DNA from: a virus
Taxonomy: Duplodnaviria; Heunggongvirae; Uroviricota; Caudoviricetes
Direction: 5' to 3' (one strand)
Virus record (IMG/VR): IMGVR_UViG_2609460344_000017
DNA length: 7,501 bases
Within the stretch, counting starts at the first letter, position 1, and each line of letters starts with the position of its first letter. Both the position numbers and the translations under genes were made by a program. Positions 746 through 6,734 of this stretch are shown piece after piece. The notes below the pieces were generated by a model. It was not told the DNA's origin, ran no database searches, and saw only the letters and a list, made by a program, of their open reading frames with translations.

Positions 746-802
746 AGCCTGCTTCTCCTTGCCTTTCGGCACGTAAGAGGCTAACCTACATGTGCAAAGC
801 AT
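590..802 (-). CDS. mok-like leader reading frame (70 aa) in frame with and ending at the hok stop
   Basis: In-frame ATG at 802-800, 19 codons upstream of the hok start. This matches the way chromosomal mok frames are annotated in E. coli hok loci (recalled, not searched). In this family mok translation is required for hok translation and is the target of sok. Confidence 0.55.
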   Translation of the reverse strand: MLCTCRLASYVPKGKEKQAMKQQKAMLIALIVICLTVIVTALVTRKDLCEVRIRTGQTEVAVFTAYEPEE

Positions 803-848
803 GAAATTGGCCTCAGATTAATGTTAAGCGTCTTGCCGGACGCGTAAT
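794..848 (+). ncRNA. Putative Sok antisense RNA
   Basis: On the strand opposite hok, overlapping the mok start. Candidate sigma70 promoter TTGCCT (759-764), 17-bp spacer, TAACCT (782-787), placing the start near 794. A GC hairpin GCGTC-ttgccg-GACGC lies at 828-843. Position and length are by analogy to sok genes; the 3' end is not well defined. Confidence 0.4.
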
Positions 849-921
849 GTTAACTGGGGCTTTTCTCTATCTGCCTTTTGGTGTTCATGCCTGAGGCAGA
901 TAGCCTCAAGCACCCGCAGTA

Positions 922-950
922 ATTCTAACTATCCAATAGATCAATGCCAA
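922..950 (-). promoter_or_regulatory. Candidate promoter for the hok/mok mRNA
   Basis: On the minus strand: -35 TTGGCA (reverse complement of 945-950), 17-bp spacer, -10 TAGAAT (reverse complement of 922-927). This gives a leader of about 110 nt before the mok start, typical for hok mRNAs. Confidence 0.3.
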
Positions 951-1302
951 CTTCTTTTCCTGCAACATCTCTCATCAGAAGTGACCCAAATTCATCCAAT
1001 CAGCACAAAAGAAACATTTAAAGCGTGAATGCTACCGAACGTTCATTTCAATTACATCGTTTTGATTTTTAACAGTTTTCACCTCAACAAATCAAATGGC
1101 ATTAGCATTCATCATGGAAGAAAGACTGATAAAAATGATCATTTTCAATGACTTATGATCACACCGGGTATTGCCAAGTCATTCCTTTTACGCCAGGATA
1201 CCCACAAGTGAGTAGTCGAGGAGAGTTTGCCAATTTTTGCGATATAAATTTCAATGTCCGAAGAACCATTAATTGTTAATTGATTCTGTATAAGGTATTA
1301 AC

Positions 1303-2400
1303 ATGACAATTTCATATATTCCTATTCTGAAAGCGAAACGTTCTGAGTTATCAGCTTTATCGCAGCTATCCATTGAAAAGAAATCAAAAATTTTGCCATT
1401 ACTCGAAATTGAACCAGTGCCAATTGACCCTGATTCAGGTATTGCCTTAAAGAGTTATAACGAGACTCTTATAGAGTTCGGAAAGAAAGTCTCAAAATCT
1501 TGCTCAGATATGCAAGGTGTTTATATTGATGGATTATTAATTGAAGAGCATTTTATTTCTCCTGAAGATCATTACCCTATAATAAATGCGGTTAATCAAG
1601 TTAGAGATATGGGGATAAGAGTTATTCCTGTCAGTTCACCAACTCGCCCATCTAACTATAAAAGAGCGATTGATGAATTAATGCAGAATGAAATATGCTT
1701 GAGATTAACCACGTTAGATCTGGTTAACCCACAATTAATAACGCATTACATTAATCATCTGGGAATTCCTTTATCAAATATTGATATAATTATTGACTTA
1801 AGAGATGAGTTAACCGAGGATAAAATTAATTCCGGCGAACTATATACTTTGGCAATGGGATTGATAAACAATCTGGCGCACCTCAATGAATACAGAAAAG
1901 TGATTCTTTCTGGGGGTTCATTTCCTACAGATCTCAGTGATATTTCTGTTGGTCTATATTCTCAACCTCGAATCGAGTGGATTTTATGGCAGAGTTTAAT
2001 GAATAGAAAAGAACTTGCCAGAAATGTGATTTATAGTGATTATGGAGTACAGCACCCCGACTTTAATAGGCTTTCGACGCGATTCCCTAGCGTATCTGCC
2101 AGCGTCAGATACTCTGGAGATAATGACTTTTGGGTATTTCGAGGAAGAGTAGCTAATCGCTTTGGTTATGAACAATATGGTAAACATAGTGAGGATATTC
2201 TTGCTCATCGAGAATATTCAGGGCCTACATTCTGTGCGGGAGATAGAGACATAGAATATTATGCAAACGAGTATCAAGCCTACAAAGCCAATCCCTCTGG
2301 TAACTATAAATTTGGTAGCCCAGAGGTATGGCGTAGGATTGGGCAAAACCATCACATAACTAAGGTTGTTGAGCAACTCGCCACTCTTTACGGGCTTTAA
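1303..2400 (+). CDS. Hypothetical 365-aa protein in an AT-rich island; possibly Beta-protein (PF14350) / sce7725-like, unverified
   Basis: ATG at 1303 with AAGG ribosome-binding site 7 nt upstream; uninterrupted 1098-nt ORF. AT-rich codon usage distinct from the flanks. No Walker, HxH, HEPN or other catalytic motif recognised. The N-terminus MTISYIPILKAKRSELSAL reminds me of Beta-family proteins (recollection only). Confidence 0.8.
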   Translation: MTISYIPILKAKRSELSALSQLSIEKKSKILPLLEIEPVPIDPDSGIALKSYNETLIEFGKKVSKSCSDMQGVYIDGLLIEEHFISPEDHYPIINAVNQVRDMGIRVIPVSSPTRPSNYKRAIDELMQNEICLRLTTLDLVNPQLITHYINHLGIPLSNIDIIIDLRDELTEDKINSGELYTLAMGLINNLAHLNEYRKVILSGGSFPTDLSDISVGLYSQPRIEWILWQSLMNRKELARNVIYSDYGVQHPDFNRLSTRFPSVSASVRYSGDNDFWVFRGRVANRFGYEQYGKHSEDILAHREYSGPTFCAGDRDIEYYANEYQAYKANPSGNYKFGSPEVWRRIGQNHHITKVVEQLATLYGL

Positions 2401-2938
2401 GTTTAACTCGAACAGCTTCACGAAGCTCGCCAACATCCATACTATTGGCGAGTTTTGACCATAAGACGCGTTTAGGTTTATTTTTCAAATTCTGTAGCTC
2501 CCCTACATCACTTAATAGGGAAAGCAATTCATCTTTCCAAAGAAGCATTGTTAAGGAAAGTTTGTCCACTTGTGGATTCAACTTGCTAGTTCGAATTGTT
2601 TTTAAATGGATACCTTGCCGTGCACCTTGCGTAACTTGCTTTATCCCCCACCATGATGGAACTATGCTTAAAGCATCATAAAGATGGCAATCAGAGACAA
2701 CCAAAGTTACTTTATCCATCACTGATGAGTAATGTTGCACCTGCGCTGGTAATCTGAGCAAGTTATCACTCTTGCTCTTCAACTCATAACCATGTATAAG
2801 CCCATTGATCACTGCTATATCAGCTCTGCTAGCCCCTAGATTCATCGTAAACTCATCAATGATTAGGGTGTCAGGATCTTTATGATGATCTCTCAGAATC
2901 TTGGCATGCACAGCCTTTCTTACATCAATGTCTCTCAT
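2360..2938 (-). CDS. 192-aa PD-(D/E)xK-type (RecB/restriction-like) nuclease-fold protein; possibly sce7726-like, unverified
   Basis: ATG at 2938-2936, stop at 2362-2360. Translation contains IIDEF ... SRADIAVINGLIHGYELKS, i.e. acidic residue, then hydrophobic-strand Asp, then E-x-K about 12 residues later, the classic PD-(D/E)xK arrangement. The ribosome-binding site is weak. Its 3' end overlaps the 3' end of the 365-aa gene by 41 bp. Confidence 0.75.
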   Translation of the reverse strand: MRDIDVRKAVHAKILRDHHKDPDTLIIDEFTMNLGASRADIAVINGLIHGYELKSKSDNLLRLPAQVQHYSSVMDKVTLVVSDCHLYDALSIVPSWWGIKQVTQGARQGIHLKTIRTSKLNPQVDKLSLTMLLWKDELLSLLSDVGELQNLKNKPKRVLWSKLANSMDVGELREAVRVKLKARKEWRVAQQP

Positions 2939-2970
2939 ACCATAGTTGCGCTTTCATCGACTCTCTCAAG

Positions 2971-2989
2971 CCATGATTCTATATCATGG
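2971..2989. promoter_or_regulatory. Perfect 7-bp inverted repeat CCATGAT-N5-ATCATGG upstream of the 192-aa gene (candidate operator)
   Basis: Exact palindromic arms at 2971-2977 and 2983-2989, 33-51 bp upstream of the start codon at 2938. Confidence 0.3.
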
Positions 2990-3243
2990 TTCGCATGAAT
3001 GCCATTTGATATGACCAGTGGTTAAACATTGCACAGAAAAGTGGATGTGTATTTTAACAAAAGCAATGACGGCTAACCATGTTGGTATGTCGATAAAATG
3101 TTTCAACGTAAGCATTATCTGTTCCGCCCTTTCAGACGGCCTCCTGATGTTCTGAGGGTGCAGAATCCCTCCGGTTAAGGATTTAATAAAAATCGTTTCT
3201 GATTTAAATCTTCAGTATTTAGTTGTTAGTCGGTTTATAGCCT

Positions 3244-3555
3244 TTATGCTTCGGCCTTATTTCTCAGCCATACACAAACCGGGCCATCTTCGGTGTCATG
3301 TATTGAACCAATAAACCATCCATTGCCCTCTGGTCGTTCCGGTTCCCATGCAGAAATATCAGCATCACACGCATCAAGGTCAGCACATCCTTCATCTCTG
3401 AAGCAGAGGACGTATTGAAGATTATTTTCCTCCATCCAGGCGTTAAACTCTTCCGTTGAAATATATTCCCGACCGTCACAGAATTTTTCATATTCAGGAT
3501 GCGTCCAGCAGCCATATTCATCACGTACTACTGGTATTTCTTTAATTTCATTCAT
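3244..3555 (-). CDS. Hypothetical prophage protein (103 aa, acidic, Trp/Cys-containing)
   Basis: ATG at 3555-3553 with GGGAGA ribosome-binding site 7 nt upstream. Overlaps the stop of the upstream gene by 8 bp, suggesting translational coupling. Last gene of the minus-strand early operon. Confidence 0.7.
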   Translation of the reverse strand: MNEIKEIPVVRDEYGCWTHPEYEKFCDGREYISTEEFNAWMEENNLQYVLCFRDEGCADLDACDADISAWEPERPEGNGWFIGSIHDTEDGPVCVWLRNKAEA

Positions 3556-3802
3556 TTCTGTTCTCCCACGTTTTCAGACTTTCACCACAGAACGGACAAA
3601 ATGAAACCCGAACTGGTAATTTAGAAAATTCACCGGAACGCAACATCACAAAATCAGGACCGCGAGTTAAACTCTCATTCCAGATTTTGTATATCAGCAG
3701 ACCTTTTCGCATCGTGTATTCAGCATCATGCTCAAGGGACTTTGCCAGTGCTGCACATGGTTCTATCTTGTTGCCATTAACCTGGCATTTTGATTCACTC
3801 AC
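3548..3802 (-). CDS. Hypothetical prophage protein (84 aa) with one CPFC motif
   Basis: GTG start at 3802-3800 preceded by a strong GAGGAGG ribosome-binding site at 7 nt. The start overlaps the TGA stop of the upstream gene (GTGA). Confidence 0.65.
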   Translation of the reverse strand: MSESKCQVNGNKIEPCAALAKSLEHDAEYTMRKGLLIYKIWNESLTRGPDFVMLRSGEFSKLPVRVSFCPFCGESLKTWENRNE

Positions 3803-4221
3803 CGCACCACCTCCTCAAAATTCCCCTGATAAAACGCCAGTACGCGCTGCATAACTTCGCTCTTCCGGCACTCGAGACAGATTATGTTCAGACGCCTGTC
3901 GTAGCGGCGTATTTCGCCATCTGGTAATGACCAGATAAGGTCCGGATCAACCGCAGATGGTTTCTTCAGCTTTGCCCTTGAGAGTTTTTTGCGGGCATTT
4001 TGCCAGTCTTTACGAGCCTGTTCAGACGGGAATAACCCGTAGCCAGAATTGTATACATCGCCACTGGCAACCAGCTCTCTGGCCAGAACGCTCATCAGAT
4101 ATCTTGTTGCCCCAGTTTTAGTTTCCAGTTGTCGTAACGTCTCGCGCCCACTCTGGCGTACGAGTTCAACAACCTGCCCTTTAATTTTTTCCCGCTCTTC
4201 TTGTGTAAAAACTTTTGCCAC
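3799..4221 (-). CDS. Hypothetical prophage protein (140 aa, basic)
   Basis: GTG start at 4221-4219 preceded by AGGAGG at 4 nt. Lies 37 bp downstream of the replication gene stop; in an operon with the two following genes. Confidence 0.65.
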   Translation of the reverse strand: MAKVFTQEEREKIKGQVVELVRQSGRETLRQLETKTGATRYLMSVLARELVASGDVYNSGYGLFPSEQARKDWQNARKKLSRAKLKKPSAVDPDLIWSLPDGEIRRYDRRLNIICLECRKSEVMQRVLAFYQGNFEEVVR

Positions 4222-4258
4222 AAGCCCTCCTGAAAATTACCCCATGACCTGAAATCTG

Positions 4259-5329
4259 TTACCCTCTGAATCCCGGCGGAATTTCGGTGTCCGGTTCAGA
4301 AATATGATTAACACAACGCTGGTTGTTCGTGCCGCTTACCGGGAGCAACCAGGGGTTTTCAAAATTCCGGTCCGGTCCAAAAAACGTCGTCGCTCGCTGA
4401 ACAAATTCCGTTCCCGTTTTCCCGGTAGCCGCCAAGTATCTTGCGTAACGCCTCACGCCATCCAGCATGGCCTCTGGTGGCACCCCCTCGCGTAATCTGG
4501 CCTTCCAGGCACTGAAAGCGGATTTCTTCGGGTTTGCCCCAGCACGCAACGGGTACTCCCGCCAGACCTGTTCGAACACATCCGGATAATCCACTCGTCC
4601 CACAGACTGCCCGGTGTTTTCCGGGACTACCCGATCGGCTTCCCGCTGAATGGCGGAATCGGCTTCGGGCTGCTGCAGTTGGTGTGATTGCTCCGGCCTT
4701 GCGGTCATCACCTGCTGCACAGCGCCCGAATCGGCTTTCAGCGCATACGCTGAATCGGCTTCCGGTGTCGTGCCTGCTGGCTGACCAAGATTGACGGTCT
4801 GAACATCCCCTGCCTGGTTCGTGGCGTTTTTTACGCCATGGACCATAGTGTTTTGATCTTCTTGATCTGTATCTTTATCTGTATCTTTATCTGTCGTGAC
4901 TCGTCGTGACATGTGCGTGACATTTCGTGACGCGCCGTGACAATCGCCATTTTGTTCCCGCTTTCTTTCCCTCTCTCGCTGCGCCCTCTTGCGCTCTGCA
5001 GGAGATTTTGCGGTTTGCGAAATATTGCCGTTGTCCTCTTTAAGCACCTGGCGTTTTTCCCATCCAGTGATTAAATCACCATCAAGTACCCGCCCCTGCA
5101 TCGTCTGCAAAATTGAATCAATTACCTCTTCTGTCACGTCGAGCGCACTTGCCAAATCTTCTGTCGTGACATCAATGTGACCTCGCGTGACATTTCGTGA
5201 CGCGCTCACCAGGAGGTGGATATACACTGCCATCACTGTTGCAATTGGCTGCCCTGACACCCTGGCAATTGTTCGCCACTTAGGGTCATTTGGCATGTCA
5301 TGCCATAATCTGAGCCAGGCGTTAGCCAT
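4259..5329 (-). CDS. Phage replication initiation / replisome-organizer protein (lambda O-like architecture), 356 aa
   Basis: ATG at 5329-5327 preceded by AGAGGTGA; an alternative in-frame GTG is at 5335. N-terminal domain, a charged low-complexity linker (TDKDTDKDTDQED, ERKRAQRERERKRE) and a C-terminal domain ending ...FEQVWREYP...KKSAFSAWKARL, which resembles conserved phage replication-protein C-termini. Iteron arrays sit inside the gene. Confidence 0.8.
   Translation of the reverse strand: MANAWLRLWHDMPNDPKWRTIARVSGQPIATVMAVYIHLLVSASRNVTRGHIDVTTEDLASALDVTEEVIDSILQTMQGRVLDGDLITGWEKRQVLKEDNGNISQTAKSPAERKRAQRERERKREQNGDCHGASRNVTHMSRRVTTDKDTDKDTDQEDQNTMVHGVKNATNQAGDVQTVNLGQPAGTTPEADSAYALKADSGAVQQVMTARPEQSHQLQQPEADSAIQREADRVVPENTGQSVGRVDYPDVFEQVWREYPLRAGANPKKSAFSAWKARLREGVPPEAMLDGVRRYARYLAATGKTGTEFVQRATTFFGPDRNFENPWLLPVSGTNNQRCVNHISEPDTEIPPGFRG
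4864..4894. repeat. AT-rich tandem repeat (GTATCTTTATCT x2 plus partial copies) adjacent to the iterons
   Basis: Exact 12-mer at 4869-4880 and 4881-4892. Encodes the TDKDTDKD linker on the minus strand. Candidate DNA-unwinding element. Confidence 0.5.
4891..4941. repeat. Iteron array 1: five tandem 10/11-bp repeats with core CGTGAC (candidate ori)
   Basis: CGTGAC at 4895, 4905, 4916, 4926 and 4936, giving a helical-turn spacing of 10-11 bp, inside the replication gene. Confidence 0.6.
5161..5201. repeat. Iteron array 2: four 10/11-bp repeats with core (C/T)GTGAC
   Basis: Cores at 5165, 5176, 5186 and 5196, plus an inverted copy GTCACG at 5133-5138. Shares exact segments CTGTCGTGAC and CATTTCGTGACGCGC with array 1. 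Confidence 0.5.
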
Positions 5330-5400
5330 ACTCACCTCTTTTGATACCGAATCTTTTTACTCACAAATTGCCGGAAGTGATCCGGTATGAATATTGCGAG

Positions 5401-5826
5401 TCAATGCACAGCCACAATATTTCCTGCAGGGCCACCACGATTCATCTGGTTGAAACCAGCGATCGCCACTGCGACAAAATCATCAGCGTCTCTCACCAGT
5501 CGTTCCCGCGTCTCCACCAGCTCCCGAAAATAAGCTGAACTGTGGCTGCGCATTCTGGCCACCAGCAAAGGTGGCATTGCCTTTTCGATCGCTGGTAACA
5601 ACGCCTGAATTTTTTCAACTGCATCAGGGGTGTCTTTCTCTACCCAGCGGAAAATTTTCTGGGTATTGCGAGCCAGGGCTTCCGGATGGCTGTCGTCATA
5701 CAGTTCTGGGAACGTCATACCCAACTCAAAATAAGCCTGGGTTATTCCAGCTGCTGGAACTTTCTCACCATCAGGATATGCCCAGGCATTCATCGCCATG
5801 CGGATGTGCTCATGTTTGATTTTCAT
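5401..5826 (-). CDS. ydaT: YdaT-like protein (Rac prophage ydaT homolog), 141 aa
   Basis: ATG at 5826-5824 with AAGAGG ribosome-binding site. Size, sequence (MKIKHEHIRMAMNAWAYPDGEK...) and position immediately downstream of a ydaS-like gene match Rac prophage YdaT as I recall it. Confidence 0.8.
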   Translation of the reverse strand: MKIKHEHIRMAMNAWAYPDGEKVPAAGITQAYFELGMTFPELYDDSHPEALARNTQKIFRWVEKDTPDAVEKIQALLPAIEKAMPPLLVARMRSHSSAYFRELVETRERLVRDADDFVAVAIAGFNQMNRGGPAGNIVAVH

Positions 5827-6133
5827 GAATCATTTGCCTCTTGATGCTTCGGGTATGATCGTTTTCGTCATTTGGTTGCTTCATCGACATATTCTGCGAA
5901 TAACATGACGAGCGTCGTAAGTATGTCCAATCAACATCAGGACGAAGTTCTTCACACAGGACACCACCTTTTGTTGCTCGTTCAATCGCAGGACATCTCT
6001 CAGCAGGCAACTGACGTACACCTTTGATCCATTGATTTACGCTTGGAGGAGATACACCTAAAAGCCTAGCCATTGCTGATTGCCCACCGACAACAGCACA
6101 AGCTCGTTTGAATGAATAGTTATCTTTTTTCAT
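5810..6133 (-). CDS. ydaS: YdaS-like Cro-type helix-turn-helix protein, 107 aa
   Basis: Preferred start is ATG at 6133-6131 with GGAG about 10 nt upstream; the ORF track's upstream start at 6154 lacks a ribosome-binding site. Helix-turn-helix region AMARLLGVSPPSVNQWIKG. Divergent from the repressor gene. Overlaps the ydaT-like start by 17 bp. Confidence 0.8.
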   Translation of the reverse strand: MKKDNYSFKRACAVVGGQSAMARLLGVSPPSVNQWIKGVRQLPAERCPAIERATKGGVLCEELRPDVDWTYLRRSSCYSQNMSMKQPNDENDHTRSIKRQMIHENQT

Positions 6134-6160
6134 CGAATGAACTCCAAAAAACACACAATA

Positions 6161-6257: not shown

Positions 6258-6734
6258 ATGCTTAGTGGTAAAGACTTAGGCCGAGCGATAGAGCAGGCCA
6301 TCAACAAAAAAATTGCATCAGGAGCCGTCAAATCAAAGGCGGAAATCGCACGTCATTTCAAAGTCCAACCACCATCAATCCATGACTGGATTAAGAAAGG
6401 TTCGATAAGTAAAGACAAACTTCCAGAACTATGGCGTTTCTTTTCTGATGTGGTTGGTCCAGAGCATTGGGGGCTTAACGAATACCCCATACCAACCCCA
6501 TCCACTTCAGATACAAAAAGTGAACTTTTAGACATAAACAGCCTTTATCAAGCCGCCTCTGATGAAAAAAGAGCAATTGTGGCTTTCCTCTTATCTGGAA
6601 ATGCTACGGAGCCTAGTTGGGTTGATCATGACGTTCGCGCCTACATTGCCGCAATGGAAATGAAGGTAGCTAACTATCTGAAAAATCAAGAATCAAAACG
6701 GAAAAGCCAGAACATCACCAAGACAGGAACTTAA
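6258..6734 (+). CDS. racR: RacR-like prophage repressor (XRE-type helix-turn-helix), 158 aa
   Basis: ATG at 6258 with TAGGAGA ribosome-binding site 10 nt upstream. Helix-turn-helix region SKAEIARHFKVQPPSIHDWIKKG. Divergent from ydaS-ydaT, as in the Rac immunity region. Confidence 0.8.
   Translation: MLSGKDLGRAIEQAINKKIASGAVKSKAEIARHFKVQPPSIHDWIKKGSISKDKLPELWRFFSDVVGPEHWGLNEYPIPTPSTSDTKSELLDINSLYQAASDEKRAIVAFLLSGNATEPSWVDHDVRAYIAAMEMKVANYLKNQESKRKSQNITKTGT

Follow-up and report, generated by a model that had tools for sequence, protein, structure and literature searches.

The DNA described here (7,501 nucleotides (nt), virus record IMGVR_UViG_2609460344_000017; this whole stretch is called the window) comes from a Rac-like lambdoid prophage in E. 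coli. It carries two convergent genes with overlapping 3' ends, one for a 365-residue protein of the Beta family and the other for a 192-residue homologue of the cII protein of satellite phage P4. We read the pair as the minimal, gop-less two-gene core of a family that includes the P4 gop-beta-cII locus and the defense system PD-λ-2, carried by the prophage as a cargo cassette ("moron") and acting as a prophage-borne anti-phage module in which Beta would be the sensor or regulator and the cII nuclease the effector. The probability of this reading as a whole is, in our estimate, about 0.55, and the assignment of roles to the two proteins is rated lower than that. The parts of the pair are as follows.

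1303–2400, + strand: Beta-family gene, 365 aa; divergent TIM barrel (predicted), then C-terminal helices
2360–2938, − strand: P4-cII / sce7726-family gene, 192 aa; predicted PD-(D/E)xK domain (about residues 1–120) plus a C-terminal helical domain
2360–2400, both strands: coding overlap of 41 nt; Beta T353–L365 plus stop (+) and cII L180–P192 plus stop (−)

The Beta Protein

The open reading frame (ORF) at 1303–2400 begins with ATG, and its product has the N-terminus MTISYIPILKAKRSE, an exact fit to the pattern M-x3-YIPILKAK-x-SE from which an earlier reading of this DNA (the original prediction) had suspected a Beta-family protein. That suspicion is borne out. Residues 5–356 align with positions 1–341 of the 342 in the PF14350 Beta_protein profile (E 3.8e-52, 178.3 bits with a cutoff of 27), and Beta of P4 aligns over the full length at 21% identity, with 13 columns (Y5, P7, L9, E15, P32, D76, P109, D165, P208, D246, G338, W343, and H351) that are invariant even with P4 Beta included. 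The protein also matches PHROG 9159 (E 5.5e-145) and is identical to a RefSeq entry, WP_000156213.1, named "beta family protein"; it has 47 close homologues and 4332 cluster representatives at E ≤ 1e-3. The ORF is a genuine gene, and its product is a bona fide member of the PF14350 family.

Within the family the window protein is of the PD-λ-2 C type. Two PADLOC PD-Lambda-2_C models match near full length (PDLC03983, E 1.8e-41; PDLC03984, E 1.7e-38), whereas the PADLOC "beta" model (PDLC02985), on which P4 Beta itself scores 8.2e-188, is matched with E 2e-4 over residues 4–40 only. The original prediction had named the sce7725 models beside PF14350 as those to check, and in that half it did not hold: the NCBIfam sce7725 model (NF033831) gives 12.3 bits against a cutoff of 60 (E 0.1), and only residues 5–39 align, to positions 1–35 of 312. 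The N-terminal Y-x-P-x-L-K motif weakly resembles the start of that model, and the protein as a whole fails it and belongs to the Beta branch.

The AlphaFold2 model (predicted local distance difference test score, pLDDT, 92.6; predicted template-modeling score, pTM, 0.92) has an alternating strand-helix pattern followed by C-terminal helices. The 36 Foldseek matches in the PDB at E ≤ 1e-3 are all TIM barrels or enzymes containing one, among them triosephosphate isomerase, HisF, TrpA, class II aldolase, GDPD-type phospholipase D, and designed barrels; their template-modeling (TM) scores are only 0.3–0.5 and the identities about 10%. A search of PDB sequences with a profile of the Beta family found no solved relative. 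Beta is accordingly predicted to be a divergent TIM barrel. All of the 55 homologues compared share ten invariant residues (Y5, E15, P32, D76, P109, D165, P208, G338, W343, and H351), and R134, R223, D246, R269, and Y270 are nearly invariant. In the model, D76, D165, and D246 would lie at the ends of predicted strands, where TIM-barrel active sites sit.

The cII Partner

The convergent ORF at 2360–2938 encodes a protein that passes the NCBIfam sce7726_fam model (NF033832; E 1.7e-56, 191.1 bits with a cutoff of 70), and it is therefore a full member of the sce7726 half of the sce7725/sce7726 pair. It also matches the PADLOC "cll" model (E 2.4e-28), and PF26915 (Phage_P4_cII) is carried by all 120 of its listed homologues (the best 120 of 302). 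Since cII of P4 itself scores 151 bits on the sce7726 model that the partner passes, these matches together make the partner a homologue of cII and not a replacement for it.

The predicted structure has an alpha-beta-beta-beta-alpha-beta core with an acidic...D...(D/E)-x-K motif, and E29, D40, E52, and K54, a full set of catalytic type, are invariant in 55 of 55 homologues. The structural matches include a long list of restriction enzymes; Foldseek by itself gave no significant match, and a search of PDB sequences with a profile of the cII family returned nothing. From the model and the conserved residues, cII is predicted to belong to the PD-(D/E)xK nuclease superfamily. Its core fold and E...D...E-x-K arrangement are the same as in MmcB-like and other small PD-(D/E)xK nucleases (PDB 3dnx, NucS, SfsA, and the nuclease domain of Can2), but cII has no detectable sequence relationship to any solved structure, and it differs from these proteins in its extra C-terminal helical domain and its obligate TIM-barrel genomic partner.

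Members of the cII/sce7726 family are also found in co-directional phage operons that have no Beta gene, in Myxococcus phage Mx4 (locus L005, 3992–4561) and in the Bacillus phages WH1 and Edson, and so the nuclease can exist alone.

Convergent and Overlapping Genes

Gene neighborhoods were compared in 59 loci, taking one genome per species, from Enterobacterales, Aeromonas, Alphaproteobacteria, Arenicellales, Paenibacillus, Bacteroidota, Acidobacteriota, Gemmatimonadota, Myxococcota, and Clostridiales. The sample is biased toward the branch of the family that has the NHHIT motif, as the scan used a closer set of homologues; the most diverse alignment has no conserved stretch. In 58 of the 59 loci the gene next after Beta is cII, encoded on the other strand, and the 3' ends overlap by 23–140 nt, most often by 44, 32, or 41 nt. 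The same convergent overlap was present in every viral contig in which the region is intact (44 contigs were sampled), and also in the Gordonia phages Powerball and DumpsterDude. The sole exception among the 59 loci, one from Arenicellales (L028, 6040–6084), has lost all of cII except the last 15 codons, which are exactly the part that overlaps Beta.

The register of the overlap is fixed. In more than 100 loci its length is, with a single exception, 2 modulo 3; P4, with its 27-nt gap, stands apart. In 53 of 55 pairs drawn from many phyla, exactly 30 nt separate the codon for Beta H351 from the codon for cII W186, and a conserved C-terminal helix in Beta (NHHIT.V..QL) and a conserved motif in cII (LK.R..WR) are encoded on opposite strands of the same stretch of about 45 nt, with no insertion or deletion across phyla. 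Pairwise identities of Beta and of cII are correlated (r = 0.90, 55 pairs), which indicates that the two genes are inherited as a unit. The overlap may be a genetic interlock, which L028 would illustrate in nature. A further consequence is that the two mRNAs must have complementary 3' ends, and this may adjust how much of each product is made relative to the other.

E. coli also has a second Beta-cII pair of diverged sequence (L065–L067), which in lambdoid prophages is flanked by the genes for Rz (lysis) and Nu1 (terminase). In L065 its cII (3134–3754, +) and Beta (3696–4763, −) overlap by 59 nt; this cII is 53% identical to that of the window and represents a cluster of 203 member sequences. 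In Gordonia phage Powerball (L004, 3725–4317) the pair has HicAB toxin-antitoxin genes on one side and the integrase/immunity region on the other, a cargo neighborhood analogous to that of the window.

Relation to P4 gop-beta-cII and PD-λ-2

The gop-beta-cII locus is an anti-phage system in a non-essential region of satellite phage P4, and the complete three-gene locus was shown to protect against lambda and P1 (PMC9122126). Gop is toxic when Beta is absent (PMC9122126), and the toxicity of the locus is reportedly triggered by a phage accessory gene (bioRxiv 10.1101/2023.04.06.535777). An accessory gene that activates the P4 locus is orf184. In the P4 record NC_001609, gop (247–648) and beta (651–1718) are on the + strand and cII (1746–2540) is on the − strand; a terminator is annotated in the gap that separates beta from cII. 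The window thus shares with P4 a PF14350 Beta and a cII/sce7726 protein, encoded convergently at a variable cargo site of a mobile element. It differs in having no gop immediately upstream of beta, in a Beta that is only 21% identical to that of P4, in a cII of 192 instead of 264 residues, in 3' ends that overlap by 41 nt, those of P4 being separated by a 27-nt gap with a terminator, and in being part of a lambdoid Rac prophage and not of a P4 satellite.

These comparisons alter the picture from which the original prediction had started. The gop-beta-cII operon of P4 is not co-oriented as had been assumed, and the window is no orientation variant with a PD-(D/E)xK protein in the place of cII, since the partner is itself a cII homologue and beta and cII converge in P4 as well. 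The label of PD-(D/E)xK protein for the partner of about 190 residues, on the other hand, gains support from the predicted structure and the invariant E29, D40, E52, and K54, and a recurrent pairing among the homologues, which had been named as a check, is confirmed by 58 of the 59 genome loci and all the intact viral contigs, in the convergent orientation.

What varies among the relatives is the set of genes upstream of Beta. A gene for an Xre-HTH/M78 peptidase, co-directional with Beta and matching PD-Lambda-2_B (E down to 6.7e-152), was found in 33 of the 59 loci, accompanied in 29 by a DUF6932 protein and in two by a HigB-like protein. In four more loci, from Acidobacteriota and Gemmatimonadota (L016, L023, L054, and L059), the gene directly upstream encodes a protein with an FRG domain (PADLOC PDC-S15), so that the core has additions of three kinds. 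None of these upstream families is present in 19 loci, and three could not be assessed. In P4 the position upstream of Beta is taken by gop; in the window it is empty. No ORF longer than 43 aa was found on either strand between the end of sok (915) and the start of Beta (1303), and no gop-like gene; when a third gene was sought on both sides of the pair, the ORFs were at most 43 aa at 803–1302 and at most 45 aa at 2939–3243. The constant element of the family is therefore Beta-cII with overlapping 3' ends, to which Gop, HigB or DUF6932 with Xre-M78, or an FRG protein are variably attached.

The published PD-λ-2 system consists of three genes, a HigB-like A, an Xre-M78 peptidase B, and a Beta-like C, and does not include cII. 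The window has the C type of Beta and lacks A and B. Natural loci of the PD-λ-2 type have the same convergent, overlapping cII beside C as the window does (L017, L018, L024, L029, L068–L071, and about 30 more). When loci were sampled from the M78 side, three of four consisted of HigB_toxin, M78, Beta, and convergent cII, and the fourth contig ends inside Beta. As loci reached from the M78 side and from the Beta side both carry it, cII is a fourth gene of natural PD-λ-2-type loci. A search with homologues of PD-λ-2 B for the original ECOR42 locus gave no E. coli among the matches listed (120 of 4258).

Loci with the two genes only recur in Paenibacillus, Aeromonas, Chryseobacterium, and Clostridiales. 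Such two-gene relatives adjoin P4-alpha-like primases (Toprim and DUF927), BREX BrxL, an nSTAND NTPase, a serine recombinase, or phage genes for terminase or tape-measure proteins. The neighbor in Samsonia, Cedecea, and Rahnella (L006, L007, and L009) is a P4-alpha-like primase with zinc ribbon, Toprim, and DUF927 domains, which suggests that these are P4-like satellites carrying the gop-less form.

The Prophage Setting

The remaining features of the window are listed below; an Rfam scan gave sok as its sole match.

136–396, + strand: 3' part of an IS4-family (IS421-like) transposase gene; the window begins inside this gene
590–802, − strand: hok/mok toxin gene, hokD-like
740–915, − strand: sok antisense RNA (Rfam RF01794, 119.8 bits)
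916–1302, + strand: non-coding stretch from sok to the start of Beta; presumed Beta promoter and leader, with AAGG about 10 nt before the ATG
950–3124, no strand: low-GC cargo cassette, approximate extent; variable region between hok/sok and a rac22-like gene
2939–3243, − strand: non-coding stretch upstream of cII; promoter-like site at 3005–2976 (ATGGCA-18-TAGAAT), a consensus match only and not above chance
3244–3555, − strand: small phage gene, function unknown
3548–3802, − strand: small phage gene, function unknown
3799–4221, − strand: DUF977 gene
4259–5335, − strand: ydaU-like, DnaT-like gene
5401–5826, − strand: ydaT
5810–6154, − strand: ydaS
6258–6734, + strand: racR (NCBIfam RacR equivalog, E 8.8e-74)

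The cassette has a GC fraction of 0.34–0.42, against about 0.50 in its flanks. Other lambdoid phages match the window only at 800–951 and 3124–3300 and have different small genes in between. The 2.5 kb around the pair are 100% identical to several human isolates of E. coli and 99.6% identical to the inducible phage Rac-SA53, in the record of which the two genes bear the notes "beta" and "CII phage-like protein"; the cassette is present nearly in full length in 93 of 5426 complete E. coli genomes.

Directly to the left of the cassette is a complete hok/mok/sok type I toxin-antitoxin locus (590–915). On the side where the window has the insertion sequence (IS; 1–396), strain 2013C-4991 has DUF968, rusA, and DUF1133 genes instead, and the IS insertion is therefore specific to the strain. 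The DUF977 gene of the window directly follows the ydaU-like gene (3799–5335); ydaV (replication protein P-like) and ydaW, which are present in Rac-SA53 and 2013C-4991, are missing.

An inverted repeat of 16 nt (15 of 16 complementary) flanks the pair at 1088–1103 and 2998–3013, and its right arm overlaps the −35 element of the promoter-like site of cII. It was considered as a shared operator or cassette end and rejected, as it has no equivalent in 15 related two-gene loci and its scores equal those of shuffled controls. The repeat is probably due to chance or specific to the lineage.

Proposed Function and Alternatives

In the reading that we prefer, the pair would protect the lysogen against other phages. 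Beta would act as the sensor or regulator, the part in which it would restrain Gop in P4, and the cII nuclease would be the effector, cutting DNA once it is released or activated. In PD-λ-2 the Beta-like C is needed for defense and not for neutralization of the toxin (PMC9519451). The obligatory 3' overlap would couple the genes, so that neither could be lost or rearranged without damage to the other. The modular architecture, together with the experiments on P4, on PD-λ-2, and on the accessory-gene trigger, points to Beta as the common sensor or regulator; if Beta has that part, cII is the only candidate effector in the minimal form.

Several points weigh against this proposal. The documented toxin of P4 is Gop, which is absent here. 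PADLOC defines no two-gene system and reports only partial component matches at the window. A scan of 780–3300 for promoters and terminators gave sites no commoner than in shuffled sequence. Myxococcus phage Mx4 and some Bacillus phages have a cII homologue and no Beta. In the published PD-λ-2 clone the three genes are flanked by only 396 and 387 bp (PMC9519451). Because cII needs about 540 bp past the Beta stop plus a promoter, that clone did not hold an intact cII. Defense by PD-λ-2 in that clone thus depends on Beta and not on cII, which weakens the view of cII as the effector. Lastly, six of the ten invariant Beta residues are charged, polar, or aromatic, which resembles an enzyme active site and not a simple antitoxin, and the roles could be reversed.

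This reversal is the main rival. Under it the pair would still be a defense system, but the TIM-barrel enzyme Beta would be the effector or signal generator, and cII would serve as a DNA-binding sensor or regulator with the scaffold of a nuclease. The invariant E15, D76, D165, and H351 and the near-invariant R134, R223, D246, and R269 on a TIM-barrel scaffold are what one expects of an active enzyme, PD-λ-2 gives defense with Beta from a clone that could not hold cII intact, and some sources name cII homologues "regulatory protein." We nevertheless hold the exchange of roles to be unlikely: nuclease folds that have been inactivated for regulation usually lose the very residues that cII keeps in all 55 homologues, and the passage of PMC9122126 that cites Ghisotti (1990) describes P4 Beta as counteracting the toxin and not as toxic itself. 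It is less probable again that the pair is an addiction module of toxin-antitoxin type which stabilizes the prophage or satellite and is not directed against phages. Gop and Beta of P4 do act as a toxin-antitoxin pair (PMC9122126), the cassette adjoins another addiction locus in hok/sok, the overlap makes the two genes genetically inseparable, and the locus is carried by mobile elements; but both characterized relatives confer phage resistance (PMC9122126, PMC9519451), convergent transcription is atypical of type II toxin-antitoxin operons, and some relatives stand in chromosomal defense islands beside BrxL or nSTAND NTPases. A role in addiction is in any case compatible with an anti-phage role, and the two are not mutually exclusive.

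Slightly more improbable than addiction is a service to the life cycle of the prophage itself, in DNA repair or recombination, control of lysogeny, or modification of DNA or nucleotides, with no part in conflict between phages. The name of cII comes from P4 genetics, the cassette is situated in the early, nin-like region of the prophage, and the solo cII of Mx4 is inside an early operon. Such a service is hard to reconcile with a P4 region annotated as non-essential, at a hotspot for which more than 300 interchangeable arrangements, this locus among them, are described (PMC9122126), with the small number of complete E. coli genomes that have the cassette, with the other genes that related phages have at this site, or with the many relatives that are chromosomal and fused to toxin-antitoxin-like modules. 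The absence of gop and the IS elements close by (IS421 in the window, and IS1 next to cII in Rac-SA53) could further be taken to mean that the pair is a decaying, non-functional remnant of a three-gene gop-beta-cII locus that has lost gop. We rejected a degraded P4-type system and regard this origin as very improbable: both ORFs are intact, with 60–80% protein identity across many genera of Enterobacterales and all the invariant residues kept; Beta of the window resembles the PD-λ-2 C type much more closely than it does P4 Beta and so is not derived from the P4 locus; and two-gene loci recur in the other groups listed above.

A wider proposal goes beyond the defensive module set out at the start of this section. 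The convergent pair, joined at its tails, might be an autonomous and ancient two-gene anti-phage module of a TIM-barrel sensor or enzyme and a PD-(D/E)xK nuclease, which would be the true core of both gop-beta-cII and PD-λ-2 and would leave the published PD-λ-2 one gene short. The overlap, kept in one fixed frame from phages of Actinobacteria to Proteobacteria, would then be a functional interlock or an antisense device and not an accident of packing. We put this forward tentatively, as a possibility that has the odds somewhat against it and that we rate well below the defensive reading itself.

Significance

That the two proteins belong to these families is already known, as both gene names are in RefSeq, Pfam, NCBIfam, and PHROGs, and the assignment will not surprise a specialist. 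A literature search with PF14350, PF26915, sce7725/7726, and gop-beta-cII/cll found no mechanistic study, and no paper on the two-gene Beta-cII locus, on the overlap, or on cII in PD-λ-2 loci. The view of a core module and the missing fourth gene are the useful outcome, and both are directly testable. The picture of gop-beta-cII is corrected, in that beta and cII are convergent in P4 too, and the three-gene definition of PD-λ-2 omits the cII nuclease of the natural loci. The two-gene form is frequent among lambdoid prophages of pathogenic E. coli and among P4-like elements in other members of the Enterobacterales. Should the pair prove to work alone, it would be the simplest way to learn what Beta proteins sense and what they do, for both of the characterized systems.

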